A DNA stretch of 64,000 nucleotides from Blasia pusilla (GCA_050084515.1 CM114271.1:10292001-10356000); one strand, 5' to 3'. Counted from the stretch's first letter, positions 11,162-62,098 are shown. Notes: generated by a model not told the origin, from the sequence alone. Program-made: numbers and translations.

Positions 11162-12155
11162 TAGTGTAATTGAAAGCACTCTTACACTTTGCACTAGTTC
11201 TTTCATATAAACCGTAGGATTTTGTAAATTATAATAGTATAAAAAGCATCGGGGCTAGCACAAGTCATAATGTAGATTATGTAGTGCCACCACCAACCAA
11301 CTTCTATATAGTAATCCAAAATGCAATTTTTTCAGCTACTTCTTGGTTTGACTATTGTCACTCAAATTCTTTCAAAACCAAGGTGGGGAAAGAATCATGC
11401 AAATAGATTAAATGGCAAGGAAAAAAAAGGGAAAATTAAATCCATGTTATTAAATATCTAATGAGTTTGGGACCCTTTGAGAGGGATAACAAGAAAACAA
11501 ATATTTATTATCACCTCTCTGTATAGGACACATGGGTTACAAGTTAAATGGAAAGAAGAATTTTTTTATGTAAGGATCGTAGAAATAGGAGTCCTAAAAA
11601 GACATATGTAACAAAAGTGAATTATTAAATAAGGAAAACTTTTAAACGGCTACTAAAGGAACGGGTCCTTCAATTTTTATTTTAAGGAAATATTTTGGAT
11701 ATTTATAGTCTCCGAGTCTAATTAAGCCTTTCTAATGTAGGGCGACAAAGAGATTACTAGATTAATAAGAGGACATTACTTGAGATTAATTTATTTATAA
11801 AAAAAATTTTAGATGTGGTGAAAAGTTTGTTTGATGATTTGTTGAGCTTGGGTGGATATATATTCGAGGCCCTAATGTGGCGGCCATACCACACTAGAAT
11901 GTGCAGCTAAAGAGAGTGAATGGACTCAGCAGCTAAAGAAAGTTGTCGTGCGCATACACATCGCTACACAACCCACATCGCTAGTCATATCTTTACACCA
12001 CACTACACCGATCTTCCTAACATACGGGTAGATCCACACATAAATGAAACATACTAACGTATATACACTGGGACCCCACAACAAAATCAAGAGTAGTAAA
12101 AACGGCTCATCCGGCCTAAACCTCCATTCATGAATCTACATCGGCATATCAAACT

Positions 12156-12562
12156 TGTTGGATTCTCAACATCCACTTCTCTAAGCACCATTAATCTGAT
12201 CAACCCCCTTGTAAGAGGAGAAGCCTAGATTGATGGTTCCGACTTAGATGTCGCAGGAGTCATAGTAATATGACGTAGGTGGTTTTAGGAGTAGCGTTAC
12301 TAGGTTTATCTAACCCTATATTGCATAGCATTATTTCTTCGTCTCTATTAATAGAAACAAAGAAAAATAGGTAAAAACCCTAGTTTTCCCGAGTAGTCAA
12401 ATAGTCGGGAGCCGCAGCGGTAGCGCATTCTCATATGTCAAGTTATCTCCATGTTCAGGTTCCATCAAAGCTCTTCTGTGAGCGCACGGACGGACTAGGC
12501 CACTTTGTATCTCTAAGTTTTGTAAAGATTTCAGTGATTTTGTCACTTTCTATTTTCTCACA
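12156..12562. repeat. Solo LTR (407 bp) inserted into the family-1 B segment
   Basis: TGTTG...TCACA, TSD AAACT/AAACC. The uninterrupted site CATATCAAACCACATCC is present in the 19.1-kb copy. Confidence 0.85.
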
Positions 12563-13234
12563 AAACCACATCCACCCTCTACTATGAGGGAATCCGGACG
12601 CTAGCACCCTAACTCCTACACATCCACACACGTCTATGCAAGAGGGGCACTCCTAAGGCTCAACATGAGAAAGATAGCTTGAGAAAGCCATCTCTCTCAC
12701 TCTTATACCCTTGGGAAGAGCCAAAAAGCTCTTTCCCCAAAAATAGCCCTCCCAATAGTAACGTGCGTGCACAAGTTACCAGGTGACCATTGACTCGATC
12801 AACGGATCACCTGATGGACTAAAACCAAAATAGAGAAATCGGCATAAACAACGTTCCCGACACATCAGACGTGTCGCCAAACTCATCCGACATCTTAGGA
12901 TGAAGTTACACCCACATAGCGAGTTGACTCTCTATATCGTCAACGCGATAGAACTCTACCTACATCGAAATAAGATGTGACAACTGTCGTGCGCACACAC
13001 ATCGCTACACAACCCACATTGCTGGTCACATCTCTACACCACACAATACCCATCTTTCCAACATACGGATACATCCACACATAAATTAAACATACTCACG
13101 CATATACACTAGGACCCCACAACCGCCCCCCTAGCTGGCACTTGGGTCCCCCCAACTCTAGATAGCACACACATATGCACTTGACAAGATCTCCTATCCT
13201 ATACATATCTAGCACCATTGGTGCCGTCATCCCC

Positions 13235-13300
13235 GCAACATTGCAACACTGTAGCTACCCGTCGTGTTGATCCCTCCAAAGAGATCTAACACTCTCGTAC
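13235..13300 (-). pseudogene. C5-DNA methyltransferase motif I remnant in the family-1 element
   Basis: Minus-strand RVLDLFGGINT (core 13292-13269), then frameshifted VATVLQ. It sits downstream of the protease and just before the PPT. Confidence 0.7.
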
Positions 13301-16300
13301 CCTACTCCAAACATAGACATGGCTCCACACCTGCCTCACAAGCTCGTTTGCACTCCACGCATCTCAACGCTTGTCCCCAACAATAATAAAGAAGCTCTGT
13401 ACCATGGGAAGAGACACCCACCCTGACATGTCTCTCCGTGGGACTATCCCCTACGGGAATGTCCTCCGCATGTATGCTCCTCTCCCCGAAAGCTCTTGAT
13501 CATAAAACACCACCTGTGAATGCTGCCAACGTGGTCACCGTATCCCCACGTGGTCAACCACCACTACTCCCTGCAAACTGCACCGATAGATGGCTCACCC
13601 ATCCATCACTTGATCGCCACCCTGGCCGATAAGAAACTATCTCCTCCCAAAAATCCAGAATGAAACCAAGAGGGTACAACATGGTACTCCCTACCAACAC
13701 ATCATACGAATCCGCAGGTGTCGTAATTGCGCGAGTGCGCACTATCCCACTATCCAACTCATGCTCTGGCTAGAGTCTAACCACCAACTCATGTTGAGTC
13801 ATGAACTACGTGGGTGATATGCCCCAAATAGAGGTCTATATATGAAAGGGACAATTGTTGATGTCCCCTTTCCGTAATCCCAACGCCAAACACGCCGTCT
13901 TCCCTAACATCAAGGGCTGCGCTCCTAAATCAAGTAGGATGCGCTGTGGGTGGTACATCGTAGCTATGGGACTAACCAAGCGAAAAACTCCTGGTTGGTT
14001 TTCCAACAACACCACACCTGGTGTGATCCTGGCTCGCTCAATGGTCGGCCGAGCTAGCATGTGTACCAACTTCGCCACCGCCGCATGCCATGACTTAGTG
14101 GGGGACATCCTGAGCTCTTGCTCCGAGGGCAAGTCCACCACCTCCTCAACTACCTCTGAATGAGAGGCAATCACCTCTCCATGCTCACATAACGTGGCGG
14201 CTAGCCGGAACACCTCCGCTGGTCCAACTCCTAACGTCGCCAACTCCAAGAACATGGTCAACACTGGCTCCTCCCAAGCCGGCATAGGAGTTTTCTCTCC
14301 AACTCCTCGTGACATCGATGCACATGTCCCACTTGTGGGCACTACCGGTCGTCAAGGCAGCATTGACGGTGTATGTAGTGCCTCAGACAATGTGAACGAG
14401 TGAGGAACCCCAGCGTGCCGCCCATCGGTCCCCTCTTGTGATTCAATCTCAACCCCACCTCTCGATGGCTTGGTTACTCTTGCAGCACCCCAAGTCACCA
14501 CTGTAGCACCTTCAACTTGAGCCGCACTACACATAAATCCCATCATCGCAGAATCCTCACCTGCGTCGTGGTAAGATGTCGAGGCTCGCGCCACACTAGC
14601 TACTCTCAGCTCCGCGCCTGCCTGCAACTGCATCATCGTCATGGCAGCAATCCTATGCTCCAATTGATCAATGCGCATAAGGAGCATTGCATTGGATGCA
14701 CGTCCTCCATCTCCCGTGACTGGTGATGGCACTCTTCCACCACGATCATCTACCACTTGATCTCCACCAACTCTCTTGCCCCCAAGTCCTATGCCAACCT
14801 CTGGACATACCTCCTGGCGAAGATTGTAACACCTATCCCTAGTGTGACCATATCGTTTACAATGATCACATTGCAATTGTGGTGGGGCCATCCTCTATGG
14901 CTACTAAGCAATCAGAGGGGCCCGTGGCCCTCTCCCATGTTGTGGGCAGTCCCTCTGCCTATGTCATCCACCAGACGTCCAACAAGCCAACCCTGGTCCC
15001 TACTGGGAAACATATGTGAGTACGGGCCATTGCCTCATTGGCTCATGATACCCGCCCTACTCTTTGGGCCCACTAGCCCATTCTTGTGGTACTGGTGCAT
15101 GTTGAGACACCTGTGGGTCTACTCCTACTCGTTGACCCGTTGAATCCCACGAAAAAACCATGGTCACCACCTGCTCCTCACTCATGTTGAGCTCTATCCA
15201 CTCAGACAACTCGGAGACCACCTTCAATGTGGGCTTCGCCATGTGAAGCAATATTGGATCCCAAACTCTCCTCCATAGCTCCTCATCTAGCATCCCGTAC
15301 CAATACTACACTGATTGGGCCTTAGTCATCCCATATGTGGCAAAGATCAAATGTCGCATGCGCATGAACACCTCCCTCAAACTCTCACCCGATCTCCATT
15401 GAAAATCCTCTAGACTCTTCAAATTGACGATGCATACACCTTGGTAGCTCTTCCCCAACTGTCAGAAGAACTCCAGTGTGGGACTGAAGTTGGGTGGCCC
15501 TCTATCACTAGAAGTCTTTGCCACATCGCCTGTCTCACTGCCCTCCTCTCCATCTAGTCTCCAAGATGATGATGTAGGTCTCTCTCCTCTCAGGATCCCA
15601 TCATATGCCTTGCGACCACTAGTGGATACATACCATGGTGCCCAATACATCCTCCAGGCATCGATCTCTACTAAATACAGCAATCGGAACTCCATGTAGT
15701 CATCCATCGGCGGACCCTCCAAGTGTTAGAACAACCCTCTCCATGCCATAAAAGGGTTGAACTGCGTAGGGGTCCGTATCTTATGGAATTCGCACCACGT
15801 GTCGAACTCCTGGATGAAATCATCTAGATCTATGGTGCCTACCGCATTTGAAAAACGTTGCATGCCCCGATGGCTCATGTCGTCTATCTCTATCCACGTA
15901 TCATTGTCCTTATCCACGATCTTGTCACCAGACCCGCTGTCTAGTGATGACGATCCAGCCACGCATGGGAGTCAAGGTGGTTCCTCACTCGAAACCCCTT
16001 GATACCTTACACCACTCCGTGTCACACCACTACTATTGCTCGTACTACCCCGTTCTTCCGAACCTTGGAAGAACACCGTGATGACAACCCTCTCTCACCC
16101 GCTCAAGCACTCAGACTCACCAAGAGTTTCCCACACTCCTCACTAGCTCACCTATGCTAATGCCAATCCCGTGCTGACACATCCGACCTCACGCACACTC
16201 AACACTTAGGCTCACTATGAGCCTCCCACTAACTCACCTAAACTACTGACACCCTTGGATCGTACACGCGACCCCTACTTGGAAATTTCCGTATATCCAC

Positions 16301-16877
16301 AAATATGCTATACATGAAAGGAGTCTACACTTGTCACCATCGCTACACCCATCTAACACCAAAAACTACCCGATACCCAACACTCTCAATCACATAAGAT
16401 AAGTGCGGGAAAAGAGACTTGAATGGATAACCTGATCACGCCCACCAACCTACTGCATCGTCAACACTCACTCCTCCATGTGGTACGGCAACCTCCGCAA
16501 CATGATACCCTCCTTGAACACACGTCAAACCTCCCGTCACTAGATATAGACCACCCATCGGCATCATCATACTCACACTCCATCAGCAACACCCCGTTGC
16601 AAACTCTTGGCGTAACTCAGCTTTCCTAACTACGTAAGCAGTTCCACCACATCCGCCTCCCAACCTGGTAACTCACGCTTACTCTGTCCCAACTCCTACC
16701 AGGTACCCTTGTTACCACCTTCAGTTCTACTTTGTCCCAACCTTACTATGTTCCTTCTCAATCATGCCTCTTTGCTTCTACTCACAATCATGTCCCCATG
16801 CGTGCGACCTCCTCACACATCGGCCGCATCACTCTGCACGGGAGCTCTTCTCGTAACGTGCCTTTCCCTTCTGTACT

Positions 16878-18097
16878 TGTAATGTACAAGTGTTTCTATT
16901 TTACAGTCGTTTTAATAAGTTTGATCCCCAAGAGGATCATTGTTTGATGAAAAGAGAGTTCGGAATTACAATTCTGTTGTAATAGTTGTATTTAAAGGTG
17001 TGTGAGTTATATTCAATGTCTTATCAATATCTTCTGATCTTTCTTAGTACCAAAGGATCTTTTCTCGATTCTCTCTAGTGGAATTGACAGCATGTTCAGG
17101 TAGATTTTCCTCTCGACATCAAGAAACCTCACAGAGATCTCAACACAAAAGCTGGCTTCTTCTAGTTTCGGAACTCAATCCGTCTCGACAGGTTACTCTC
17201 TGTCAAACAGATTTCCTACAACTCATGTTGATTATTTCACTGATGAGAAAGGTTCGTCTGATTCACTCTTCACTCTGCAGACCCAAAAAGAATACTCAGA
17301 CATAAGCATCGCACATCAGAATGAATGAATGATTGCTTTACTACTCCATCAAGAATGAGAAAGCTTCAAAGTGTATACAAGCTCGAGAGGGTACTTCTCT
17401 CTTGCTCGGACCATTCCTACAACATAAGGACTTCGTAAGAGAATGATGATTATGGCTTCTACCTTGCTTCTTAAATATTAGCTAGAATAGAAGTGATCCT
17501 AAGATTCGAAACGTTCTTGATGAAGCTAGTGTCTCTTCACTGTTTCTAACTACCTAGATCTATGGTTCTCTTAGCTTTTCCTATGATCCCTGGGAATCCG
17601 CAATACAAAACTATCCTAACTACCAATTTGATACAAAGGGTCGCGCCCTTTCCTAGTCTAACTGTTCTAACTATGTGTCGCTTGAAATCACAGTCCTTCT
17701 TAGCTTCGCTTCGCTGGGAAGTTTGGACTTCTTCTTCTTCCCTTGAGGACGAAGCTCTTCCTCTTGGTTTGAGGACGAAGTACTTCATGCTTCGTGCTTC
17801 GTGCAAGAGCGAAGTACTTCTTTCTTCTTTTCTTTGTGATGCTTCGTTATGTAGCGAAGCGCTTCAAAGACATAGCTTCATACATCTTTGTTGAGCTTCA
17901 TTAAGCTTCGTCATTGTGTTTTCCTCTCCTCTAAGGAAAATCCTTGATCTTCCATCTCTCTGCCTTGTCCCAGGAGCTTCGTGATTCACTCATTCTTCTT
18001 CATAATAATAAATAATCATATCAAAATCATAATATACAAGAGTCTTCGTTGAATAAAAAGATATATTCTTCAAGAGTACAAAATTGTGGGTATCACA
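16878..18097 (-). repeat. Solo LTR (1220 bp), family 4, nested in the family-1 element
   Basis: TGTAATGTACAA...GGGTATCACA with a perfect 5-bp TSD GTACT/GTACT. Termini are shared with 62131-63671. Confidence 0.9.
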
Positions 18098-19079
18098 GTA
18101 CTCTTTGGCTCCCACGTACTTAGCAAAGCCCTACCCCCATCCTAACTCTCTACAGACACGCGTCCCTATGGACGCACCCTCACTCCTTCTTCCCTACACT
18201 TGAAGCCCACCTGGCTCCCTCTTTACTCCTGGATGAGCCCTCCATGGCTCCCCGCTCTCCCTTCCTCCTTACGCGGCCCTTCCTTGCACGGTGCCCTATG
18301 CACCTTAACTCCACCTCAGTTCCCTGGACCCGCCACTCTTTCCCTGGTCCGTGCGCATCCTTATGCGCACACTCCCCAATCCGGCCCCTTCATCCCTCAA
18401 GACACACTCAACCCTCTCCCTTCCTTTGGCTGTCTCCGTCCGCAGATCCTTTCTCATGCCTCGTTTGGCCTATTTCTTGCCCGACTTGGCCCTCGTGGCT
18501 CCTTCATGCGCCCCCCGCGGCCAACCCCACACAGTGCCCTATGGATCCATAATGGCTCACACCCCTTTGACACCACCCACACCACATCCCTATGCGGCCC
18601 TATGTGGTCGCATCCTAGCTTTGTCGGACCCCGGACCTCAAACGCGGCTCCGCCTAAACCCGACTACCCGCCTTGCAACTCCCTGCTCTCGAATCCGCAG
18701 CCTTATGCTTACTTCCCGCTACTGTACAACTGCGCCCCCAACCTAAATGTTCTGACCTAACCTAATATGAGCGACTGCAACCTAGCCTAGCCGCGCTCAC
18801 AGTGGCTATGGTATTCCCAAAGCTTCTTTTTCTCCCGAAACTCACCGCTCACCCATCGATTGTACTCTCCGTGCTACACCTAAGCTACTACCGCTATATT
18901 CTGTTGCTGTCCCCCATCAATCCTCACCGTCAAGATCAAAGAAAACATGACAGCGCTTCCGCCCACGGACTCTCGAACAGAAAAATGCCAACAACAACAC
19001 CAACCAACGTCTCCAAGGCTCCCCAACCAGGGCAACTCGCCTGCCTACCTGAAACCAACAAATTCCCCTTGCCCCCTCG

Positions 19080-19093
19080 CATCTTTCTCATGT
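19080..19093 (-). promoter_or_regulatory. Self-priming primer-binding site of family 1
   Basis: 19080-19093 (CATCTTTCTCATGT) is the exact reverse complement of 19263-19276, which begins 27 nt downstream of a minus-strand TATAA (19307-19303). Confidence 0.8.
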
Positions 19094-19901
19094 AAAATCA
19101 AGAGAAGTAAAAAATGGCTCACCTGGCCTAAAACTCCACTCATGAATCTACATTGGCATATCAAACCACATCCACCCTCTACTATGAGGGAATCCGGACG
19201 CTAGCACCCTAACTCCTACACATCCACACACGTCTATGCAAGAGAGGCGCTCCTAAGGCTCAACATGAGAAAGATGGCTTGATAAAGCCATCTCCCTCAC
19301 TCTTATACCCTTGGAAAGAGCCAAAAAGCTCTTCCCCCAAAAATAGCCCTCCCAACGGTAACCTGCGTGCACAGGTTACCAAGTAACCATTGACTCGGTC
19401 AACGGGTCACCTGATGGACTAAAGCCAAAATAGGGAAATCGCCATAAACGATGTTCCCGACACAACAGACCTGTTGCCAACCTCATACGACATCTCAGGA
19501 TGAAGTTACACCCAAATAGCCCGCTGACTATCTATACCGTTGACGCGATAGAATTCTACCTACGTCAAAATAAGATGTGACAAAGTGAATGTAGGCTCTT
19601 GGACATAATGACGAGGTCAAGTGGCATTACTCAAATTTCAGCTTAAGTAATCGCCTTTTGGATTGTCAATTTCCCACAAGTGATCTAGTGATGACTTGAG
19701 GTTTCTCCTAATCACACGAAGTATAAGGCTTTGGTTGTTTTCCCATCATGTCTATTTTGGGATTAGAAGGGACCATTTCCTTCCTGAACGACATATGTGG
19801 AATAAGACCAGTATTAGAAGTATCTGTCATAAACCCCGCAAAATTTTGATGTTCTCTTAGTTGATTTATGATGGATGTGTTGATTCATACCATAGAGCCT
19901 T

Positions 19902-20644
19902 TGTCATGCGAATACACATCGCTATCAACATACACATCGGTTGTCATGCACACACATGTCTAACATCCATCTAGCTATAAATCCTAACATCTCTATGCAT
20001 GAACGACTGGACAACCCCAATATAAAGTTGAATACAAAGTGTAAACTCTCATGAAATCTGCAATCAACCGTGCTTCATCCAAACAGCCATACTCATGATT
20101 CTGATACGCACTGGTGTGACAGCAAGAGAAAGTATACACAAGGATTCCTAAAATGTGTGATCTCCTTATTGATCACTCCTAGCCCACTCTTCAAGAGAGA
20201 ATCCAGGCTCAATTCATGCATGTCGTAGTGTATCACGGATCCCAACAAGGGTCTGCAATCCTAAGGAGATGAGCTCCAAATGAGACTCATCCGAGGTATA
20301 CTCCCCTGGGCACCTCCATGGATGACCTATACACAGAGGTCATCTCCCTCCTACCAGGTCACTACCAACCTGTAATACACCCATACTAGCTCCCTAACAA
20401 CTACACATGTGGTCCCCTCATGAGACCAACTACCAACTAACCCACGACCCTATAGATCCAAGTGGAGCCGAGCCATACATGGGTGGGAAGGTCAACCTCT
20501 CCAAGGTTGCCACTCCTCATAAAGGGAAGGGGGACCTACACTTGTAGGTCACCTCCTAAGAGCAGGTCACATATGACCTCTCAAAATAGGGAAGTACAAG
20601 ACCCCTCTAAGGCCTGGATACTATCTCTCCCTACGCCTCATCTA
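19902..20644 (-). repeat. Family-2 LTR: A segment 19902-20019 + AT + truncated B segment
   Basis: Starts TGTCATGCG. B is nearly identical to 33002-33619. The end of A is the reverse complement of the sequence after the PPT at 22292-22331. Confidence 0.85.
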
Positions 20645-22331
20645 GTGAGGAGTCGACAGGGACTAGAGACATCCACGATGATGAGATGGTCTTGGAGTAC
20701 CTGCGCACTGGTGTCGTAGCAAGCACGGTGGGTGCTAGAGAGCGAGATCGAGTCCTACGGAGAGCTAGGAGGTTCAGGTGGGAGGGGACGCGTGTGGTTT
20801 AAGTCTGGGAGGATGGACGAGTGCGAATGGTGCCGCATCCTTCACAGCAAGCACGAGTTGTGAGACATGCTCACGAGGAGTTAGGGCATTTTGGAGTCAA
20901 GCGTACGTATTGCTTGATATAGATTCAATATTGGTGGTGTGGTATGCAGACTGATGTTAAGCAGTTTGTAGCTAGATGCATTGTATGTGATAGGGTGCGG
21001 GCATCGTTCAATGCTCGACACCACACTTGCTTCCTTTACTGATCATGGGGTTAGGGTATCGCTAGAATTTAGACTTTGCAGGGCTTTTACCATTGATGGG
21101 ATGCCATAGTCGGTATGTGTTGGTCATGGTGGAGCACTTCTCCGGATGGATTGAGTTGGTAGGGTTGCCGGATAGGTCGAGTGAGGGAGCGGCTTATGCA
21201 TTTCTTGATAGAGTGCTTAGTCACTTTGGCGCACCAGTAGAGGTGTTGATGGACTAGGGTACTGAGTTTAGGGGTGACTTTCAGGCCTTGTGTGATTAGG
21301 CATTGATAGATCATCCTATGACTTCTCTAGATCATCCGGAGGCAGATGGTTTGGGAGAGAGAGTTGTGCAAACGGTGAAGAGAGGATTGCACAAGTATGG
21401 ACTGCAGAGAGGACACTTGGGAGATTGGGACCTACAGTTTCCGTGATTGGCGATGAGTTACCGCTTCAGTCGGCAGGCATCCTTGGCATCATTTTCACCA
21501 TATTTCTTGCTCTATGGGAGAGAGCCAGAGTTATCGGTGTCGATTCGACGAGATGTAGTTGAGGTACTTGACCTCGAAAATCTAGACGTATGTATGGGTG
21601 CGAGCGTGTTCTTAGTGGGCTGAGCTCTTTTGGAGAGTCATGCCTATGGCATTTGAGAACCTGGCTATCTCTCAACATCACGATACTCTGAGGTACGTGA
21701 CTACGCCTGGAGGAGGCTATCAACTAGGGATTCGGCGATTCCATCCTGTCCATTATGTCTATCTACAGCACGCAACGCCGATGACATTGGACGTGACAGC
21801 GGGACGCACTGTTCTGCGAGTGCGAGAGATTTTAGTTTCAAGAGTCCTTGTTTTAGAGGGTCGTGATGGTACCGTTTGGAAAGATCATGTGTGTAACTGT
21901 GCGCCATGTCATCTTCCCAACGTAGATGGGAGGATTGATCTGAGCTTGGGAGTTGTTCCTCCAGGCTTGAGATGCATGTTGTGTGGGTCTGCCACAGGCG
22001 TAGCCACGATGCTACTTTGTGATGGGTGTTCTCGAGGATGGCATATGTCGTGTTTGACGCCACCTCTCGACTTGGTTCCTCAGGGACGTTGTCTTTGTCC
22101 CAGATGTACATAGGTGTGATAGGTAGATACAAGATGACTCTTGATGTTATGGATTGCAAGAAGGTGACTAACGATGGGGTGACACAGCACCCGACCTCCT
22201 CATCTTAGCACTAAAAAATTGCATAGCATTTAGACTTGTTTTGTAGGCTATCTTGAGTTAGAGGGACCTAACCACCAGCTAGGGGGGCAATTCGAGTTTT
22301 CTAGTCGTTCATGTGTGGAGATGTTAGGATT
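20645..22331 (+). mobile_element. Gypsy integrase (HHCC, DDE core) with C-terminal PHD finger, PPT and start of a family-2 A segment; degenerate
   Basis: HEELGHFGVKRTY...CIVC, LDFAG, ADGLGERVVQTVK. ORF 21640-22113 ends CMLC-x9-LLCDGCSRGWHMSCL-x11-CLCPRC (C4HC3). PPT AGGGGGGCA at 22281. Confidence 0.9.
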
Positions 22332-22339
22332 AATCTGAG

Positions 22340-25300
22340 GACTCACCATCCAACCTCCCTCCTTGGAGTGGATGCCTCCTGCTGACTTGACATAGCCAAT
22401 AGACACAAAAAGGCACATGCGTGCCAACCCGGCACCATCTCCTCATTACTCTCACCATGCCACCGCGCTCCAGTCACATTGCTCTAGCTCGTGCATGGGT
22501 TACGGCTCAACCTGTTCGCATCTTGGCTCAAATGTCTTGGATGATGCACAACCTGAAAATCATACTCGTGCAATATGAGTGACCATTTGGCAAGCTTCTC
22601 TGTAAGCTTGTCTGACTCCATCAACCACCTGAGTGGCTGATGATTAGTGATGAGCATGAAAGGGTTCCTGAACAAATAACATCTGAAACGGGCCACTGCC
22701 CATACTGCAGCTAAGCACTCCTCCTCATAGGAAGTGTACTTCCCCTCCGCAGTGTTGTTTGAGCGGCTCACATATGCCACTACGAACTCCTTCCCCTCAT
22801 CACCAACCCTATCTGGCGCCCCCAACAACAAAATTTCGGCTGGCAAAACATGTTGATATCCCCTGACTGCAGACACTGGCAATAACTGAGGATACTGTTG
22901 GACTAGTCTCGACACATGATGTAATAAGACTCTACATGCAGTCTCATCCCTTTAAATATACAAGTACTTCTATACTCGTACTCCGGTCTGCAACACTACA
23001 GCCAACGCTGTACTAATCCCTCCAAATAGATCTAATATACATACACCCTCCTCGGGATACTGCCACAAAATTGGTATGGTGTCCAAGGGTGTCAACGTCT
23101 CCACTCCTAGAGCACGTGGTAACTTTGTCCCGTCTCGCTCTAGAGCATAGGCTCGGCTCCACGCCTATCTCACGAGCTCGTGTATTCTCCTCCACAAATC
23201 GATGCTCGTCCCCCAAAAAATTGAAGAAGTGTCGCCAACAGATGTAGGCAAGCTCGTCATTGCATGCCACTCCTCAAGACTATCTTGTGTAGGAATATCC
23301 TCTGCATTGGCGTTGCCCTCTTGTAAATCTCCAAGCCAACATAATGTGCCACAATAAGCAGCAATTGTTGTGGTCGACCCCCAGAGTGAACCATCAAGTC
23401 TCCCTGCAAATTGCACGGGTAGCTAACTGGCTCGTCCCTCACCTAACTGCCAACTGACTGACAGGAGGCTTTCTCCTCCCAAAAGTCAAGTGTGAATCCT
23501 AGAGGATACAATACGATAGCCCCTACCAAAACATCATAAGACTTGGCCGGTGTCACAACCGCTCGTGTCCGCACCATCACACTATCCCTAGGATGATTGG
23601 GCCGAATCCTCACTGCAATCTCATTGCAAGTCATGAACTATGTCGAGGATGTGCCTCCCAATGAATCCTGAATCTAGAATGGACATGGAGTGATCTCACA
23701 CTTCCACAAATCCTATCGCTACACATGTCGCCTTTCCCAACATAAGGGGTTGTGCTCTTGAATCAAGTAGCACTCTCTACGTCGATACATGACTCCGGAT
23801 GGACCAACCAACTGGACAACTCCATCTCGGTTGTCCAAGACAACAACTCTTGGTGAGACGGTTTTACGCTCTATCGCTGGTCTAGCTGGCAGCTCCGCCA
23901 CTCTAGCCGCTGCTGCATGCCAACTCTCTGTGGCTCTCATCCCGAGCACATGCTCCGAGGGTACCTCTGCCACATCTCCTGTGCGAGTCTAAACACTAGA
24001 AGAACCAAACTCATCGCTCTCATAGAGCATCGCCGCCAATCGGAAAACATTAGTTGGTCAACCTCCACATATCAACAAATCTCTGGCCGTAAATAGTGGG
24101 ATGCTACACAAAGCTATCACCATATCTCGTAATGTGCCAATACTAGGCCGTGTCAAATGCTGCATAGGCCTGATAGTCGTACTCGCCTCACCCGCTCCTC
24201 TAACTGCAGTGGCATCTATGACAAAAGCACTCCGCAAATGCCGTCTAGGGACCATTGATGGGGTCCAAAGAGCCTGTGACAATGTGAAATACTAGGGAAG
24301 TCTATCCTGCTTGCCAGCCTCTCCCCTTTAGGCATCCAACTCCACATCAGATCCTCGTGGCTTAGAAGCTCTCACCGCGGCTCTCGTAACCATTGCATTT
24401 GCATCCACTTGTGCGCTGTTGCACAAAAATCCCATATCTCCTAGATCTCTTGCCATATCCTAGGCTTGAGCAGATCCGGAAGTTGATGCGCTCCCTACAC
24501 CTAATGTAGATGCCTGCTGGGTCGTCATGGCCTGAAGGCGTTGCTCCAACTGAGCAATCCTTGCCAAAGCTGCCTCTGATGCAAGTGCTGCACTCACTTG
24601 GGCAGGTGGTGGGGTCCTACCTCCACCACGTCCTCGACCTTCTACACCTCGTCCTTTGCCACCTCCAGGTCCTCGACCTCCCTCTAGGCGCAGCTTGGGG
24701 TGGAGCTGGAAACATCTCTCACGTGCGTGCCCATATCTTTGGCAATGATCACACTGAGGTAAGGGTGGCCTACCCTGGGCCGCCTCATAAACAACTGATG
24801 GTGATGCAAACACTCCACTCTGCTGTCTATAATCTCGCTAACGATGTGATCCTCTATACGTCCAACAAGAAATACCTGAGCGTTGCTGCCCAGCATATGA
24901 CTGAACTGGTCATGGTCCTGGCTCGCCGTATCCTCCTGTAGCCCTCGGTCCCATGACTCTATCTTGAGTAGTGCATTGCGGCACTGATGGAGACACCATC
25001 ACTCGTGTTGTCTCCCTCGAAGATGATGCGCCTATACTCAAAACTCTCTCCTCAAGTATGTGGAGCTCAATCCGCTCCGCGAACAAAAATACAGACTTGA
25101 GAGTAGGCGAACCAACATGTTAGAGAGTTGCATCTCGCACTCTCTTCCGCAACTCGTGGTCTAGTGTCGCATACCAGAACTTGACCGCTTGCGCCTTCGT
25201 CACACCCTTAGTTGTTGTGATCAACCGTCAGAGTCGTGCATAGGCCTCTCGAAGACTCTCTCCCGCTCTCCCCTGAAACTCATGAATCGACTTCAGCTTG

Positions 25301-26280
25301 TTAGTCCTCACCCCCTGATAGTTCCTCCCCAACTCTCGGAAGAACTCAACCAATGGGTTGAACGCGGGTGGTACTTGCCTGGTCACAATCGTAAGACTCG
25401 GGTCGAAAACTCCTCCAAGTGTCTCCTCCGTGCGGTTAGTGGGTTCTACTATAGCCGCCACATCAAACATTGCACGTCATGTGAGGGACACATATCCTAG
25501 AGACCAAAATAGTCTCCAAGCCTCAAACTCCATCTCATGGAGAATCCAAAACTCATGATAATCATCCCTGGGAGGGCCCTCCAGATGCTGAAAAAGTCCC
25601 TTCCACGCCATAAAGGGGTCGAATCTCTACTGGTTTTGCATCCTCTATGCATCGCACCAACTATCAAAATCCTCCATAAAATCATCCAACTCGATGGTTA
25701 CCACCATGCTTGAGAACCATCGGGGTCCCCTCGTGGACCCATATGTATCACAATCATCCATGTCCCACAACAATGGTGTGGCAACATTCGCGATACTCCG
25801 TGGCCTCTCGGGTAACTCAGAATCTGCTGACGTCACCTCTGGAGTAACTAAAATTCGAGGCTAAGGTGGTTCCTCATGTGGAAACCCTCGATACCTAGCC
25901 CCACTCCGCGTAAATCCTCCGCCACTTCTACCATTACCACGCTCCCCAATACTATGTGGATGCGCCGTGGTGAAACCTGCAAACTATTATGACTCACTCT
26001 CGAGCCGCTAGCTTTGCACTAGACTATGCCCAAACGGTGGACACGCCCCCACTTATCTCACTTGAGATCAACACTCGACAAATAGCCCGCACACTAAATC
26101 ACTCCCGACTAGTGTGGTATACATCCATCCCACCAAGCTCTCTACAATAGTCACCATAGTGTCGTGCACTCACCAACGCACTAATCCACAATGTGTGTCA
26201 CCCAAAAAATCACCCCTCAAACATCTCCATAAGCAGTAGGGTAAGTGAATAAATTCCCCTGTGTGCAATAGCTAGCCATG
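22340..26280 (-). mobile_element. Degenerate Gypsy internal region: gag-CCHC, protease, DNMT N-terminus fused by deletion to RNase H
   Basis: Gag fragments 25836-24460 (CDHCQRYGHARERC), protease ~23780-23480, DNMT-like segment ~23070-22806, RNase H VVAYVSRSNN...EEECLAAVWAV...TNHQPL...KLAKWSL (22800-22484). Confidence 0.88.
22806..23070 (-). pseudogene. Retrotransposon-borne C5-cytosine DNA methyltransferase fragment (motifs I-III region, DNMT3-like)
   Basis: Manual translation: GVCILDLFGGISTALAVVLQTGVRV*KYLYI*RDETACRVLLHHV...LPAEILLLG, resembling the DNMT3-type [29 protein letters not shown] SAM-binding motif. Confidence 0.78.
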
Positions 26281-26317
26281 ACTTCCTTGTGGGTATGTTG
26301 GTAACACAACATGCAAA

Positions 26318-26377
26318 AGAACTCCCCAGTTAAGCACACTCTAGAGGAATAGAACTGGGATGGATGATCTGGAAGTT
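26318..26377 (+). pseudogene. 5S rRNA-derived fragment (internal promoter region; Cassandra-like)
   Basis: AGAACTCCCCAGTTAAGCACACT...AATAGAACTGGGATGGATGATC-TGGAAGT aligns by eye with plant 5S AGAACTCCGCAGTTAAGCGTGCT...AGTAGTACTAGGATGGGTGACC...GGGAAGT. Confidence 0.75.
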
Positions 26378-26551
26378 ATGTTGAACTGGATTAGCATCAG
26401 CTTGCCAAGTCCTCACGCCCGCTAGCAAGTTGGCTTGTTGGCAACGCCTCTCATGCCCACTCATACCTTTGAAGCCTCTAAATTCCGAGAATGCCCGTGA
26501 TTCAGCTGCCTCACTTGTTCGCCACGCTTCGCTGCGCCAAACTCACATGTG

Positions 26552-27955
26552 AATGGGAACTTCAATTCCGATTTCGCGCCGTGCCACAAACGCCGGATCC
26601 GCAAGAAACTAAGGTGGGAATGGGAACTTGGGTTCCGATTCTCACCCACACCAAAAGAGACTATCTCGGGATAGAAAAGGGCGACTGAATGATCCCAATG
26701 GAACTTGAGTTCCGATTTTTGCGTCGCTTTGCCAACTCGCCTAAACTTGGACGTTTGAAAATCCTTCACCTGAAAGAGTGCCGAATTAGAACTTCAGTTC
26801 CAAATGCTCTTGGCTCACTCCTTCCTTCACAAAAGAATGACAAAATTTGAACTTCAATTCCAATTGCTCACTCCTCCCTCTCTGCTTCATGCGCCGCGTC
26901 GCGCCTTGGTAGGGAGAGTCGCGCCCACTTCACACTCCGTGGATTGGAACTACAATTCTGATTCTTTCTCCTTCCTCCCTTGCCATGCCTGAAGAAGAGC
27001 CATGCCCCACTTGAGAGGTTGCGGAATAGGAACTCTAGTTTTGATTCTCCTCTCCTTCCTCTGAACGCCGTGTTGAAACTGAGAGTCACACCGACCTCAC
27101 TCCTTGGGCTGCGCCAAAGGGGATCAGAACTTGAGTTCTAATTTCCCTCACTATCCTCTCCATCTCCCTGAAGAGAACCCATAACTAAGGAGCGGAATCA
27201 GAACTAGAGTTCTGATTTCCTCCTTCCTATCATCTCCACCTCCCTGTAGAGAAGACCCACAAGTGAAGAGCGGAATGGGAACTAAAGTTTGAATTGCCTC
27301 CTCACTTCACTTCACTTCCCCGCGCTGCTGCACTATGCCACGCGGTAGTCAAACTGCAGTTGGGACGCTCCACTGTTCTCCAACTGATATAGAATTGGAA
27401 CTTGAGTTCCCAATACTCCTTGCTTCCTTTTCACTCCCGCTGTGCCAATCTCTGCTACGCCGTCGAGATGATCACCATGCAGTTGAACCACGCCTTGGCT
27501 CAACTGTGCTTGAAATGGAACTTGAGTTCCAAATCCCTTTTGCAACTTCTTGTCACCCTTGCCACACTGTGCCGTGCCACGCCCTTCAGGTGACTCGGCC
27601 CTTGCTGCTGAATCAGAACTTCTGTTCCGATTCGTACTTTGCCGCTTTGCTCCAAACTGCCTCTTGGGAGGGATCTCCTAAATCAGAACTTAAGTTCTCA
27701 TGCCTCCCTCAATTCCACTAACTCTGTGGCTAGCAGTCCTAGCTATGCTCTAGTAACAGCTCCAAACTAGTGGCACCCCAAACCTTTCTCAACCTCTCAC
27801 CGAGGGAAAGCTACATGGTAGCTTCTTTCTTGCCTTTCCTGAACCACGTTCACAAGGGAAATCAGAACTTCAGTTCCGATTGAATGAAGAGCTCTCCTCC
27901 CTCCTCACTCCTTCTCACTTTCCAAACAAGGGCTATCAAAACTTAAGTTCTAATG
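26552..27955. repeat. Array of 16 spaced 22-bp palindromes, consensus AATC(A/G)GAACT-NN-AGTTC(C/T)GATT
   Basis: Copies start at 26552, 26619, 26696, 26784, 26844, 26942, 27025, 27122, 27196, 27274, 27393, 27513, 27611, 27681, 27860 and 27934. Confidence 0.9.
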
Positions 27956-28487
27956 CCTTGCACAACAGCTTCAGCACTGCACTCCTGCCCTCTCACATCG
28001 GTGATCCGCTCAACTCAGGGAATCTACGTGTCCGTAGGGTTTAGGGTGCAGGGAATCTTTTGGAATCCTCCTCAAATGAGCTCCGTTTTTTGTCCCGTTT
28101 TTATTGTTGGACTCAGATTTTTGCGATCTTTCCAACATTCATCTGATTTGGTCCAGAATCAAGCACTCCTCACTCAAAATCAGCAACGAAGTGCCCATGC
28201 ACTTACTGACTTGCCCACACTCAATCGTGTCACGATTGACACAGATTTTCTCACCAAAATTATCTCAGGAATTCTGTCCCCACAATCTGATCCTCAATTG
28301 CTCCACTCTTGAGCAACTCCATCAGGATTGAGAAGCCTCCCCCTCTTCAAATCCTGTCACGTTTGTCGCATTGCACAGATTTCTCAATTTTGAACATCTC
28401 ACTTTGATTTCAGCAATTCTTCTGCCCCATGTCCTTCCGCATGGTCAGGATACACTAGCTTTCAATTCTTGCAAATTACTCAGGAAA

Positions 28488-28560
28488 TAGTGGTCTCTTG
28501 GGAATAAACTTAATACTTTTCGATTAAAGGAGTATCTTTTTCCTTGAGTTGTACATTATA
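28488..28560 (+). repeat. Terminal fragment of a family-4 LTR
   Basis: Reverse complement of 62131-62200 (...TTGAGTTGTACATTATA). Confidence 0.75.
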
Positions 28561-28800
28561 GACACAAAGTGGAGTGAGATACCGAGGGGTTTTGAGTGAG
28601 GAGCTACCTCGACTTCCATCCGTGGCTGGATCCTCATCACTAGACAGTGGGTCAGGTGATGAGATTGCGACGGAGGCAGTATCACTTGGCAAGAGATGAA
28701 GAATATGGGTCATCGGGGCATGCGTCGTTTCTCAGGTGCGGTGGGCACCATCGACTTAGACGACTTCATCCAAGAATTTGACACATGGTGCAACTTCCAC
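28561..28800 (+). mobile_element. Gag N-terminal fragment of the family-1-like Gypsy
   Basis: HRGMRRFSGAVGTIDLDDFIQEFDTWC matches the 15962-15726 minus-strand gag. Confidence 0.85.
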
Positions 28801-31800
28801 ATATCCAGCACATATACATCGATGTCATCAAACATACATACAAATACACACAATCCCATGCTAACTCATGGAATCTACACAACGAGACGAGAAGTACCAA
28901 AATATCTCCAATAAATCGATCAAATCTCACACCAAGCTCTCCATGGTGTGCACACTCTCTCTCTTGTCAAACCAAACCCACTCTCCTAATGAGAGGATGA
29001 GATTACACACACAAGGCAAGGAGGACCATAGCTCTTCCGCCTCATGGCAAGAAGTTCAATAAAGAGAGAATGGGCTCTCAAGCTTTCTCTCTTAGAGGTA
29101 TATCCCCTTCCCTCTCCCAAGCCCTCTCCACGGTAACTTATGCTTGCACGTCACCTCCTTGGCTCTTGAGTTGCTGTAGCGGATCAAGGGCCACTTCCAA
29201 AAGTGGAAAGTCAACTATATTCCAAATGGAAACTTACCTAAAATAGGAAGTTTTTCTATATGGCTCCAAATGAGCCAAAACGAAGGGGAAAGGTGCTCTC
29301 ACAGGTTATTCATGGCCTTAGCAGTCATCCTCGACCTCTTGAGACGTCCTCATGTTTCTCTTAAGGCGCTCTACTATATCTTGTCGATCTATCCTAAAAG
29401 ACATGACAGATATCGTGCGCATACATATCATTACACAATATACATCGTAGTCACTAAACATACATACAAATACACACGATTCCATGCTAACTCATGGAAT
29501 CCACACAATGAGATGAGAAGTACCAAAATATCTCCAATCTTCCCCCTAATTGGTGGTTAGGTCCCTCTAACTCTAGATAGCCATCTATACCAACCTACCA
29601 TGACATACATCTCTCGGACACTATGAGCAAAAAGTCAGGTGCTCATGTGGCCCCATCTTTAGTTGCCTTCTTGTCATCCATGTCACAGACACAAGTCAAA
29701 ATCTACAACTATATATTCTATGTATATGTGGGGCACATCCATCAACCCCGAGGATCCCTAGTGAGAGGTGGCGTCAAACATGTCATATGCCATCCTCTCG
29801 AATATCCATCACAGACTGTCATAGTAGCTGCACCACGGGCAGAACCACACAACATACATCACAAGCCTACAGGAACTACTACTAATCTTGGATCAACTAT
29901 ACCGTCAATGTTAGGAAGGTGACATGGTGCACAGTTATGCACATGGTCCTTCCAAACCATACCATAGCGTCCGTCTAACAAGAGAACATCAGGTGGAAAA
30001 ATCTCACGCACTCTCAAGATAGTGCACCGTGTAGTTACATCCAATGTTGTGGGCGTTGTCTACTACAAGTAGACATAGTCTCCCTAATGAAACCTCCAGA
30101 TAGTAGGTCAGTAACCACCTCCCGGAATAGTAGCATACCTCAACGTATCCCGAACCTACACTATCGCCAAGTTTTCAAACGCCGTGGGAATCACTCTCCG
30201 AAACAACTCAACCCTCTCAGAATATGCTCACATCCACACATCAAGATCATCAAGGTTCAACACCTCACCAGCATCTCGACAAATGGCCAAAGGTAAATCT
30301 AGCTCTCTGCCATAAAGTAGCAAGTACGATGAGAAAGATGCTTAGGATGCCTGCATGTTGAATCTTTATCCCATTGCTAACCATGGAAATTGGAGGTCCC
30401 AATCTCCTAGGTGACCTCTCTACAAGCCATACTTGCGTAAACCTCTCTTCACCGTATGCATAACCCTCTCCGCTAGTCCTTCCGCCTCAGGATGATCTTG
30501 CAAAGTGGTGTAGTTGTCGATCAGTGCTTAGTCACACAAGGCCTGAAACTCCCCGGAAAACTCTATACCCTGGTCTGTCAACACCTCAACTGGTGTGTTG
30601 TAATGACTCAACACTTGATCTAGGAAGGCATACACTACTCCCTCACTCGCTTTGTCAGGCAATGCATCCAAATCTATCCACTTCGAGAAGTGCTCCACCA
30701 TCACCAAGACTATGGCGCTCCGTCAAAGGTAAAGATCTTGCAAAATCCAAAATCCATCTATAATCTAAACCCATGATTGGAAGTGGATGCAACTGTGGAG
30801 TTGGAGCATTGAACAATGCTCGGACCCGATCACACACCATGCACCTTGCAACAAATTGCAGAACGTCAGTCTGCATGCCTCGCCGCCAATATTGTATCTA
30901 GAGCAAGCTATATGTCCGCTTCACTCCAAAATGACCCAACTTCTCATGGGCATGACACACAAAACGTGCTCTCTATGAAGGATGAGGCACTATAATCCTC
31001 CCAAACTCGGAACACATGTGTCTCCTTCCACCAAAATTTTCTAGCTCGCTGTAGGATCCGATCTTGCTCTCTAGCACTCATTGTGCTCGCAACGCTAGCA
31101 GTACGCAGGTACTCGAAGACTACTCCATCCTCGTGAATGTCTCGACCACCTGTTGTCTCCTCACTGGCCTCTACATCTAAGGACTCTCCGTCATACCTCT
31201 TCATCGAAGTCTCAACAATCTGGCTCTCCATACCCAACAAGCCCAAATAGGCTGACGCGTGCCATCATGGCATCAACTCCTCATCACTCTCTCCATGCCA
31301 TCGAGCTCCAATTGCATCTTGCTGACTCGGATATGGGTTACGGCTCAAACCATTTGCATCATGGTTGAACGTCTTAAGTCTATGCACTACTTGGAAATCA
31401 TACTCGTGCAACAACAAAGCCCACCTCGCAAGCTTCCCTATAAGCTTGTCGGACTCCATCAACCACTTAAGTAATTAATGATCATTAATAATGGTAAAGG
31501 GATTTTCGAATTAACAACACCTGAAATGCACGATATCCCATACTACAACCAAACACTCACCCTCATATGAGCTATACTTCACATCTACAACGTTTTTCAA
31601 GTGACTGGCGTAAGCCACCACGAACTCTCTACCCTCATTGTCATGCTAGGCAAGCATGGCTCCAAGCCCCAACATGCTCCAGTTTGTATGCAACTCAAAA
31701 GGATGCCCCCTGATCAGTCTCCTCAATATGGGCGTGGACGTCAATCTGTCCTTCAACAGTTGAAATGCTCCCTCTTGCTCATCCCCACCAATGCCACTCA

Positions 31801-32987: not shown

Positions 32988-33619
32988 CATCTCCTTAGGA
33001 TATAAAGTTGAATACAAACTGTGAACTCTCATGAAATCTGCAATCAACCGTGCTTCATCCAAACAGCCATACTCATGATTCTGATACGCACTGGTGTGAC
33101 AGCAAGAGAAAGTATACACAAGGATTCCTAAAATGTGTGATCTCCTTATTGATCACTCCTAGCCCACTCTTCAAGAGAGAATCCAGACTCAATACATGCA
33201 CGTCGTAGTGTATCACGGATCCCAACAAGGGTCTGCAATACTAAGGAGATGAGCTCCAAATAAGACTCATCTGAGGTATACCCCCCTGGGCACCTCCATG
33301 GGTGACCTGTACACACAGGTCACCTCCCTCCTAGCAGGTCACTACCAACCTGTAATACACCCATACTAGCTCCCTAACAACTACACATGTGGTCCCCTCG
33401 TGAGACCAACTACCAACTAACCCACGACCCTATAGGTTCAAGTGGAGCCATACATTGCTGGGAAGGTCAACCTCTCCAAGGTTGCCGCTCCTCATAAAGG
33501 GAAGGATGACCTACAATCGTAGGTCATCTCCTAAGAGCACGTCACATATGACCTCTCAAAATAGGGAAGTACAAGACCCCTCTAAGGCCTCGATACTATC
33601 TTGCCCTACCCCTCATCTA
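32988..33619 (-). repeat. Family-2 5' repeat (B segment) with self-priming PBS 32988-33001
   Basis: 33002-33619 duplicates 20022-20644. CATCTCCTTAGGAT is complementary to 33238-33251 (1 mismatch) and to 20258-20271 (exact). Confidence 0.82.
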
Positions 33620-34091
33620 CCATTACACCTTCCACCTTCTTGCTTTGATTTTCTTGCTTAAAAGAGGGGGAAAAATCCTTTAAGTTAGCCAAATGCATCG
33701 GATCAGATACTCTCAATGTTATGAAGATTTTGCAAGGTTCAAGTTGAATCACATAAATAATTCAGTCCAGACTAATGGAATGGATAGGCTTTCCAAGACG
33801 TGACACAAGAAGTTAAATTTCTACAAAATTGCTCAAAAGATCGATTACTTGTTGTAGTTATTTGATGGACTCAACTCTCTTCTGTTCGATTTCTACTTAA
33901 TTACAGCATTTGAAAAGATTATGGCTACATGTTGCCTACACCATGTTAGGTTGCATGTAGCCAAATCTAAAATGACGAGGGGCGTTGTTGAAGTACACAG
34001 GTCTAAATTCTTGAAAACCATGAAGAACATCCTTAATGTGGTTGTGCCATCCTGTAAATTGAAAGTGAAGCTAATTCAAAACAAACAAAAA

Positions 34092-40343: not shown

Positions 40344-41347
40344 CCTCCGATTTAACCCAACCCACAAAGTTGATGTCGGGTTCTACGTCTCTACTTAGGT
40401 CCTATCTCCATGTTACAGTCCAGACTAAACAAAACCTTGCGAGCCAAAAGTCCCCTTCCAGCTCCTGGTCTACCCAGCTAGCCGCAACTCCTCCCAAGTC
40501 AGCAAAGATACTCCTGAATTTCTGACCTGAGTCCTATATCTGAGGAGCTGAATGTCGCATTCTTCAATGGTTACTACTCTCCCTACATTTCCGCTGTGTC
40601 TTGAAACTTTGATGTAGGTAAACTGAACCCTAATATTCAGCCTTTCACGAAAATCGATCACAAGTTCGATTATCCTCCAGAACTGTTCTATGCACGGAGA
40701 ACTAATGAACTTATTTCAACAACCCTACATTTGTGAACAGTCCACGAGACATTAGGAATTCGAAGTGTATGACATCGCAATCCATTCCCGGTAGAGTGCC
40801 TCAGCGTTACCGAGTGGATTTGATCGTATGTTCATTCGATCGTAGCAGCCGAAGAATGGGTTGAAGATCCATCTCCAATCAGTCAGGAGAAAGATGTGGT
40901 TGCTTTCATCGCGGTCTTCCCTTCCGCTTACTTCGTAGCGTCCATGCCTCCAAGAGAAAGTTCCGCAAAAATCGCAATTCTGTGTTCAACGAGCCCTCTG
41001 GGTGTTTGACGCGGAGCGCTACCCCATGCGCATGGCCAAGGGATAGGAAAAACATAGCCCTGGCATTTACTGCTAAGCACGTACGTGAGGAATCACATCG
41101 AAACGCGGGATATCCACCATAACCCGCGATTCGGACTGGAGCCGAAAAACGTCACACTAACGGGATTTCGGTAATATGCCGAAATCCCGGCATATTACCG
41201 CTACCGTTTTCGGCAGGCCATGCGGGAGGGTCATGTTCGCATGTATGGCATGGCCATGATGAACCCATGGCTGTGGGCATGGAATCCTCGCATATGGATG
41301 CCCATAGACAGCCATGGCAATGGCATCATCACACGCCTGTTCACCAT

Positions 41348-47960: not shown

Positions 47961-47974
47961 GACTTCATGTAGAG

Positions 47975-61330: not shown

Positions 61331-62098
61331 TGTCGTGCGTATACATATCGCTACACAACCCACATCCCTGGTCACATCTACACACCATAAAATACCGATC
61401 TTTCCCAACATACGGGTAGATCCACACATAAACGAAATACACTCATGAATATACACTGGGATCCCACAACAAAATTTGAGTAGTGAAAATGGCTTACCCG
61501 GCCTAAAACTCCACTCATGAATCTACACCGGCATACCGAACCACATCCACCTTCTACTATGAGGAAATCTGGACGGTAGCATCCTAGCTTCTTCACACCC
61601 ACACACGTACATGCAACAGAGGTGCTCCTAACGCTCAACATGAGAAAGATGGCTTGAGAAAGTCATCTCTCTCACTCTTATACCCTTTGGAAAGAGCCAA
61701 AAGGCTCTTCTCCCAAAAATAGCCCTCCCAACGTTAATCTCTATGCATAGGTTATCGGGTTACCGTTGACTTGGTAACGAGTCACCTGACGGATTAAAAC
61801 CAAAATAGGGAAATCGTGATAAACAACGTTTCCAACGCAACAGACTTATTGCCAACCTTATCCGACATCTCGGGATGAAGTTACACTCGAACAACTCGTT
61901 GACTCTCTATGCTGGCAACGAGTCATCTAACGGACTAAAACCAAAATAGGTAAATCGTCATAAACAACGTTCCCAACGCAACAGACTTATTGCCAACCTC
62001 ATCCGACATCTCGGGATGAAGTTACACTCGAACAACCTGTTGACTCTCTATGCTATCAACGCGATAGAACTCTACCTACGTCAAAATAAGATGTGACA
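61331..62098 (-). repeat. Family-1 solo unit (A-ac-B) with an internal 141-bp tandem duplication, inserted in a related gag
   Basis: TGTCGTGCG...AAGATGTGACA, TSD AGAT/AGAC (the empty site GAGTAGACCCAC is seen at 15125-15114). Duplication 61779-61919/61920-62060. Confidence 0.9.

Follow-up and report, generated by a model that had tools for sequence, protein, structure and literature searches.

To our knowledge, self-priming has been shown experimentally only in Tf1-type elements, and the elements of the DIRS order possess a tyrosine recombinase and leave no target-site duplication (TSD). In Tf1, the first 11 nt of the element's own RNA serve as the primer in place of a tRNA, with an RNase H cut between bases 11 and 12 (PMC7175516). 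For plants, the REXdb survey predicted self-priming for 12% of the LTR elements that it covered, and the Tcn1 chromovirus clade (moss, club-moss) and the TAR lineage of Ty1/copia are lineages with such a prediction (PMC6317226); the main text of the survey contains no mention of liverworts, Klebsormidium, PHD or methyltransferase.

A separate line of work concerns the arrangement of terminal repeats. Split direct repeats of the form A1-internal-B1-A2-B2 have been described for the DIRS order (PAT, Toc, Kangaroo, Ngaro and VIPER; PMC4157794). In Klebsormidium nitens, the element KnitGypsy-Dnmt3 combines Gypsy domains and a DNMT in Pol with repeats arranged as in DIRS (PMC5890265); the words 'primer binding' occur zero times in that paper, and the passages used here offer no mechanism for its repeats. 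A 2026 preprint names the streptophyte Gypsy-DNMT3 elements, and the part of it used here makes no mention of self-priming. Across the main texts of the literature covered, no paper links self-priming to the streptophyte Gypsy-DNMT3/PHD lineage or explains its split repeats.

The stretch of DNA analysed here (the window) comprises 64,000 nt of Blasia pusilla (GCA_050084515.1, CM114271.1:10292001-10356000), and all positions given without a locus name are counted from its first letter. It contains a minus-strand element, WB, in which the 14 nt directly after the 5′ terminal repeat are complementary to the 14 nt with which the transcript of the element is predicted to begin. Tf1-type self-priming is, in our judgement, the best reading of this site (19080-19093), with a probability of roughly 0.7.

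Architecture of the element and of other copies in the window

Self-comparison and reading of the junctions gave the layout ACTT|B-PBS-internal-PPT-A-GT-B-A|ACTT for WB on the minus strand, PBS standing for the candidate primer-binding site and PPT for the polypurine-like run (Table 1). The 5′ copy of B shares 91% identity with 12563-12983 and 89% with 12083-12154; the internal copy of A (13123-12985) matches 11944-12082 at 88% and 61331-61470 at 85%. Homologues of the gag and protease parts of the interior lie at 25119-23386 and in a complete relative from a metagenome (L054). The interior of WB contains no RT, RNase H or integrase, and a Pfam search of its three read-through frames returned zero families; because one of these frames (frame 1) holds 86 stop codons, the copy is dead. 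Within its high-copy Ty3/gypsy family, WB is an old copy that is defective and non-autonomous.

Table 1. Positions and properties of the repeat elements in the window.
Feature	Position	Strand	Remarks
WB, 5′ TSD ACTT	19583..19586	-	ACTT|TGTCAC at WB 5′ end
WB, 5′ terminal repeat B	19094..19582	-	starts TGTCAC; carries TATAA and the predicted transcript start
WB, TATAA box	19303..19307	-	in 5′ repeat B
WB, left arm (putative self-primer)	19263..19276	-	CATCTTTCTCATGT, predicted transcript nt 1-14
WB, PBS (candidate, self-priming)	19080..19093	-	reads ACATGAGAAAGATG; directly adjoins last base of B
WB, internal region	13133..19079	-	long leader, gag-like, protease-like, DNMT motif-I-like remnant
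WB, gag-like frame with CCHC knuckle	15863-14829	-	by homology to better copies
WB, protease-like part	13937-13662	-	by homology to better copies
WB, DNMT motif-I-like remnant	13292-13263	-	by homology to better copies
WB, polypurine-like run	13124..13132	-	AGGGGGGCG; directly upstream of A
WB, internal A copy	12985..13123	-	139 nt, GTTGTGGGG...CGACA
WB, GT spacer	12983..12984	-	within near-palindromic junction CGACA-GT-TGTCAC (A end | B start)
WB, 3′ B copy	12083..12982	-	split by an unrelated repeat of ~410 nt (~12155-12562)
WB, terminal A copy	11944..12082	-	true 3′ end of WB, ...CGACA at 11944
WB, 3′ TSD ACTT	11940..11943	-	CGACA|ACTT at WB 3′ end
Element WE	33627-19902	-	TSD AAGG at 33631-33628 and 19901-19898
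WE, 5′ repeat B″	33001..33627 (end approximate)	-	starts TGTAATGG; 94% identity to 20020-20644
WE, TATA	33280	-	in 5′ B″
WE, left arm, 5′ copy	33251-33238	-	CATCTCCTTAGTAT
WE, PBS (candidate)	32988..33001	-	ATCCTAAGGAGATG; directly at the end of the 5′ repeat
WE, 3′ B″ and terminal A″	19902..20644	-	B″ from 20644 to ~20020, A″ to 19902, ...CATGACA
'Solo' unit B-A	61331..62098	-	TGTCAC...CGACA; inserted in an antisense gag fragment; flanks GTCT and ATCT

The sequence-only reading of this DNA had taken the 3′ and solo copies of B to end at 12083 and 61471, exactly where the duplex begins, and had drawn support for self-priming from these presumed LTR ends. The similarity does stop at both positions, but they are not the ends of copies, because in each case B runs straight into a conserved A of 139 nt (12082-11944 and 61470-61331); the real ends lie at 11944 and 61331, the two positions are B|A joints, and that strand of the argument had misread the architecture.

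Whole-genome shotgun (WGS) reads carrying the same species label, aligned at a likeness of at least 85%, and three RNA-seq runs were examined over WB. Depth of WGS reads is ~750 in B, as expected of a high-copy family, and 532 at the B|PBS joint (19093), which is also spanned by RNA reads (12, 9 and 27); the first ~830 nt past the PBS of WB are low copy (WGS depth 2-4). At the end of A, 1137 and 615 WGS reads continue from 11944 and 11943, respectively, into unrelated sequence (agreement 0.37 and 0.35), which identifies this end as a true terminus, and a further 617 continue from there into a B-like start. Another 55 WGS reads jump from 12150 to 12571 across the insert in the 3′ B. This insert (12155-12562) is itself high copy, with a WGS depth of ~430-455 per mate direction, and its RNA first mates are mostly on the minus strand, opposite to the reads of the WB element. 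The RNA reads over WB are mostly sense, and some of them extend across the B|PBS joint and others across the A|B junction; no pile-up of starts was seen in B in the three runs, at a low depth of ~7-11 in the B bin. RNA reads of an expressed subfamily match WB over only ~37 nt around the A-GT-B junction (12977-13013) and diverge on both sides, so the junction is more conserved than the remaining parts of A and B.

Other ways of parsing these repeats were considered and rejected. A standard LTR made up of A-B is ruled out by the TSDs at the start of B and the end of A, as well as by the read termini at the end of A; A as a TRIM-type LTR has no fitting PBS or TSD; and a later solo insertion beside a B-internal-A element has no fitting TSD either, the TSD flanking the whole unit instead.

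The window holds further copies of the family. The element WE is a mosaic, its leader passing straight to the C-terminal half of RT at ~32253, and its 3′ repeat is adjoined by one arm of an inverted duplicate of 1.65 kb (20644-22286 versus 29542-31165, 71.5% identity, integrase-PHD region). For the solo unit, the target is visible uninterrupted at 15108-15128; its B contains a tandem duplication of 141 nt at 61772-62061, the copies of which are 92% identical. On the minus strand, a long tandem-repeat stretch (25300-28500) occupies the leader upstream of the better-preserved gag of another family copy (25119-24100). Other remains of mobile elements in the window include the remnant of a Ty1/copia RT (218-1099, plus strand; RVT_2, E 7.6e-47), a PIF1-like, Helitron-like helicase fragment (47939-48535, plus strand) and a palindrome of 315 nt (41344-41658).

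Relatives among proteins and metagenome loci

With the RT-RNase H piece of WE as query, 359 proteins out of 1487 candidates were retrieved at E<=1e-10. The closest of those with a name belong to liverworts and streptophyte algae: Calypogeia fissa (56% identity), Marchantia polymorpha, Klebsormidium nitens (41%) and Closterium. RVT_1, RNase H, rve, H2C2 and PHD are present in many of these relatives, some of which also carry the DNA methylase family PF00145, and the intact ones encode gag-PR-(DNMT-like)-RT-RNaseH-integrase-PHD. Against a cut-off of 22 bits, PF00145 scores 33.2 bits in the relative P0020 and 18.1 bits, below the cut-off, in L054. According to Pfam, RVT_1, RT_RNaseH, Integrase_H2C2 and rve follow one another in Ty3/gypsy order in both L054 and WE, and the best PDB match is Ty3 Gag-Pol (E 9.7e-92). 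At the C-terminus of the integrase, Pfam detects no chromodomain; a PHD finger (PF00628) is found in that place (window 29850-30978, minus strand, and 20840-22110, plus strand; L054 11820-13080), and the PDB entries most similar to the PHD finger of the family are histone-reading PHDs of the KDM5/UHRF1 type.

Scanning metagenome contigs gave 215 matching stretches; 173 of them encode relatives, and 80 were kept. Contigs representing the same insertion were merged before counting (L007=L018, L017=L041, L049=L054=L059, L039=L047 and L005=L006). Complete elements are present in three loci, L054, L073 and L007 (TSDs CATA, AATC and TCTC), with the layout B-PBS-gag-PR-(DNMT-like)-RT-RH-IN-PHD-CTAGGGGGG(C/T)G-A-NN-B-A and the ends TGTCATG…CATGACA. 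The run CTAGGGGGG(C/T)G precedes A at 17 listed metagenome sites. Among eight more distant relatives (32-50% identity), no A…A repeats were found; L066 (45% identity) gave no readable layout on inspection by eye.

Pairing between the repeat boundary and the predicted transcript start

The candidate PBS of WB, which reads catctttctcatgt on the plus strand of the window (19080-19093), is the exact reverse complement of 19263-19276, and all 14 positions of the left arm form Watson-Crick pairs with 19093-19080. The start of the arm at 19276 lies 27 nt past the last A and 31 nt past the first T of the TATAA, and 169 nt separate arm (19276-19263) and PBS (19093-19080). Both the perfect pairing and the distance of 27 nt from the TATAA (19307-19303) had been claimed from the sequence alone and are confirmed here; the transcript start of WB was placed by TATA spacing alone.

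The same pair of sites recurs in WE. Its PBS, ATCCTAAGGAGATG, forms 14/14 pairs with the arm CATCTCCTTAGGAT in the 3′ copy of the repeat (20271-20258) and 13/14 with the arm in the 5′ copy, the difference being a single later change in the 5′ arm. Counting from the TATA, the arm begins at the 30th nt in WE and, from the first T, at the 32nd in WB. Between the two elements, the arms differ at 7 of 14 positions, and each of the seven differences is compensated in the PBS. In the metagenome subfamily, the arm is AGTTCTTTGAGT, 30-32 nt from the TATA, and the PBS is ACTCAAAGAACT, running from the last base of B. Arm and PBS of L039 form a perfect 12-mer, decayed copies keep 8-13 of 14 pairs, and L008 carries a variant with two compensatory double changes (A-U in place of G-C, and C-G in place of U-A); L007 scored five pairs, a value that is not informative since its 5′ B lacks the region of the transcript start. 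These comparisons were read from a position-by-position table, as an alignment of 11 leaders with MAFFT had split and misplaced the arms of WB and WE. The compensatory changes between WB and WE, and those within the subfamily (L008), show that the pairing is kept by selection.

The proposed mechanism would proceed as follows. Transcription would start ~30 nt past the TATAA in the 5′ B, at about 19276, and the first 14 nt of the RNA would fold back over an R region of 183 nt and pair with the 14 nt directly after B. By analogy with Tf1, RNase H would then cut behind the duplex, and the 14-mer so freed would prime minus-strand DNA. The complementarity, its position, its compensatory conservation in three lineages and its occurrence in predicted folds can be read directly in the elements, and the transcript start, the RNase H cut and the priming step are inferred. 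The original proposal, a PBS matched to the start of the element's own transcript as in Tf1, with a longer primer, has gained support in that three lineages each have their own matched arm and PBS at the same positions.

Split repeats, joints and integrated ends

Ends of the integrase type (TG…CA, with a short terminal inverted repeat) are found at the start of B and the end of A, and a TSD of 4 bp was present in all eight elements checked (five perfect, three with a mismatch at the first base). Unlike these integrated ends, PBS and PPT mark the end of B and the start of A, so that the primer-defined and the integrase-defined ends do not coincide. Two identical LTRs with outer ends set by PPT and PBS are not what these elements possess: the 5′ end consists of B only and the 3′ end of A-NN-B-A. 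With primer-defined ends that differ from the integrated ones, replication departs from the textbook cycle.

Split direct repeats (A1-int-B1-A2-B2) are present in WB, L054, L073 and L007, and in seven distinct loci in all. The 2-nt spacers between A and B in the loci are GC, AT, AC and TC, and the internal A-NN-B junction resembles an LTR-LTR junction. At the B|A joint, the base before the PBS is joined to the base after the PPT in WB, the solo unit, WE and the seven distinct loci, one of which has a filler of 20 nt at the joint. The two joined ends of a reverse-transcription product would look like this, and the joint independently marks PBS and PPT as priming sites.

Among distinct insertions in the loci, the A-NN-B-A 3′ end (n=7) stands against a B-int-A form (n=7), in which A is followed by flank without a 3′ B-A (L004, L010, L016, L034, L038, L039/L047 and L045). 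Four of the latter were counted by the pattern of the PPT-A start and three by the distance to the end of pol; in L045 and L039, three of the four TSD bases match. The B-int-A elements could be primary products or derivatives of recombination between the two A copies. The form B-A-NN-B-int-A was seen at none of nine distinct 5′ ends (seven in loci, plus WB and WE), all of which are preceded by flank. A symmetric model, in which a 2-LTR circle is cut once, is disfavoured by the absence of this alternative product at all nine 5′ ends. The asymmetry would be compatible with a linear intermediate that is extended, or with a single master form from which the others derive by recombination. In L051 (3236-3876), PPT-A-GC-B-PBS passes into B in reverse complement, read from the arm to the exact terminus of B, and then into flank. 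This resembles an integrated snap-back cDNA, as would arise had the 3′ end of a DNA lain at the PBS, folded back on the arm and been extended, and is an indirect hint of such an end.

One possible, though rather doubtful, account of these forms is a permuted integration. Specifically, the repeat of the self-primed cDNA would be A-NN-B, bounded by PPT and PBS; integrase, instead of using those ends, would cut the near-palindromic …CATGACA NN TGTCATG… inside it. Integrated copies would then read B…A-NN-B-A, with a 3′ B|A joint that every cycle forms afresh out of both cDNA ends. If true, permuted integration predicts exactly the forms seen, namely (i) B-int-A-NN-B-A, (ii) B-int-A and (iii) B-A; it would be a replication cycle intermediate between those of LTR and DIRS elements, and would explain the split direct repeats.

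Proposed self-priming and competing explanations

Covariation proves pairing, not priming, and the same is true of folding, so that the duplex of arm and PBS may be a conserved clamp in the leader, for example to mask the poly(A) signal in the 5′ R or to serve in packaging or dimerisation, with something else priming minus-strand DNA. The folds themselves, which the sequence-only reading had proposed as a check, bear out the duplex: it is found in both the minimum-free-energy and the centroid fold of the leaders of WB, WE and L039. As a whole, the leader of WB folds unusually well (z -3.51; none of 200 shuffles folds as well), and those of WE (z -0.83; 44/200) and L039 (z -1.59; 10/200) are not unusually stable. 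Consistent with a clamp, the duplex is possible only in the 5′ copy of R, the 3′ copy being followed by A. However, nothing obliges a clamp to begin with the predicted first nucleotide or to adjoin the repeat boundary to the base, as the duplex does in three lineages; no alternative PBS, and specifically no TGG-initiated site beside B, was seen at the boundaries inspected; and the B|A joint points to a DNA end at the base that precedes the PBS. A clamp is, on this evidence, improbable.

The repeats themselves suggest another alternative, in which the family would replicate like DIRS, PAT or Ngaro elements through circular or single-stranded cDNA, and the complementarity would be an 'internal complementary region' that aids the joining or completion of cDNA ends instead of a primer site. 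The order B-int-A-B-A does correspond to the split direct repeats A1-B1-A2-B2 (PMC4157794), and the same remark has been made for KnitGypsy-Dnmt3 (PMC5890265). However, no tyrosine recombinase domain was detected in Pfam scans of three frames of L054 and of the elements in the window, and the family has an integrase with H2C2 and rve. The TG...CA ends with 4-bp TSDs in 8/8 elements point the same way, since elements with a tyrosine recombinase make none. Replication of the DIRS type is quite improbable here.

A PBS complementary to a host tRNA, a tRNA half or another small RNA, the match to the repeat being secondary, would have precedents in the half-tRNA primers of plant copia elements (PMC6317226). 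The three PBS variants, however, differ from one another at most positions and are each complementary to the arm of their own element, a pattern that a shared tRNA primer would not give, and none of the three starts with TGG. In addition, a search of 18800-19700 against Rfam found no family at E<=1. Such a primer is very unlikely. ARAGORN found no tRNA gene in the 64-kb window, and a tRNA scan of 30 of the 80 metagenome loci was likewise empty, so that these sequences offer no tRNA with which to compare the PBS variants.

Chance is effectively refuted: although the window does hold a second perfect pair of 14 nt (28166-28179 and 28590-28603, loop ~410 nt), which has neither TATA context nor a repeat boundary and is probably fortuitous, the pair of WB has counterparts with compensatory changes in WE and in the metagenome subfamily, placed at the same two points of their anatomy. 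Perfect inverted repeats of at least 14 nt with a loop of 60-450 nt number four in the window; 30 windows simulated by a first-order Markov model had 0.23 on average and at most 2. With four such repeats, a paired 14-mer somewhere in the window is only mildly unusual, and it is position and recurrence that carry the argument: the right arm adjoins the repeat boundary, the left arm is placed at TATA+30 to +32, and two other lineages repeat the pair with compensation, which excludes chance.

Comparison with known systems

Judged from the sequences, this is most likely a real, well-supported self-priming PBS, that is, a variation of a known mechanism, in a lineage with a repeat oddity that had been noted before but not understood. 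In the Tf1 and Tf2 elements of Schizosaccharomyces pombe, the site immediately after the 5′ repeat pairs with the very start of the element's RNA; the same position is taken here by a PBS that matches the predicted transcript start. The duplex comprises 11 bp in Tf1/Tf2, whereas it comprises 14 here (12 in the metagenome subfamily); chromoviruses of the Tf1 group have a chromodomain, whereas the present family has a PHD finger at the C-terminus of its integrase; and Tf1/Tf2 have ordinary LTRs, in contrast to the split repeats described here, for which priming is predicted. Probable self-priming with covariation support is now found in a different, ancient lineage of streptophyte Gypsy elements, bearing DNMT-like and PHD chromatin domains.

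The plant elements of the Tcn1 and TAR lineages resemble the present family as predicted self-primers among LTR elements in which no tRNA-type PBS is seen, and differ from it in that the DNMT-like and PHD domains, as well as the split repeats, belong to the present family. Another close counterpart is KnitGypsy-Dnmt3, which shares both the Gypsy domains and the DIRS-like arrangement, a K. nitens protein being among the homologues at 41% identity; it carries a DNMT in Pol, whereas WB keeps only a motif-I-like remnant.

The DIRS order shares the layout of split terminal repeats with the present family, but its members have a tyrosine recombinase and no TSD, whereas the elements described here have a DDE integrase, TG...CA ends and TSDs of 4 bp. 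The positions of PBS and PPT are a first mechanistic handle on DIRS-like split repeats in integrase-bearing elements, as they separate repeat boundaries derived from priming from those derived from integration, and the origin of split direct repeats thereby becomes testable in a bryophyte.
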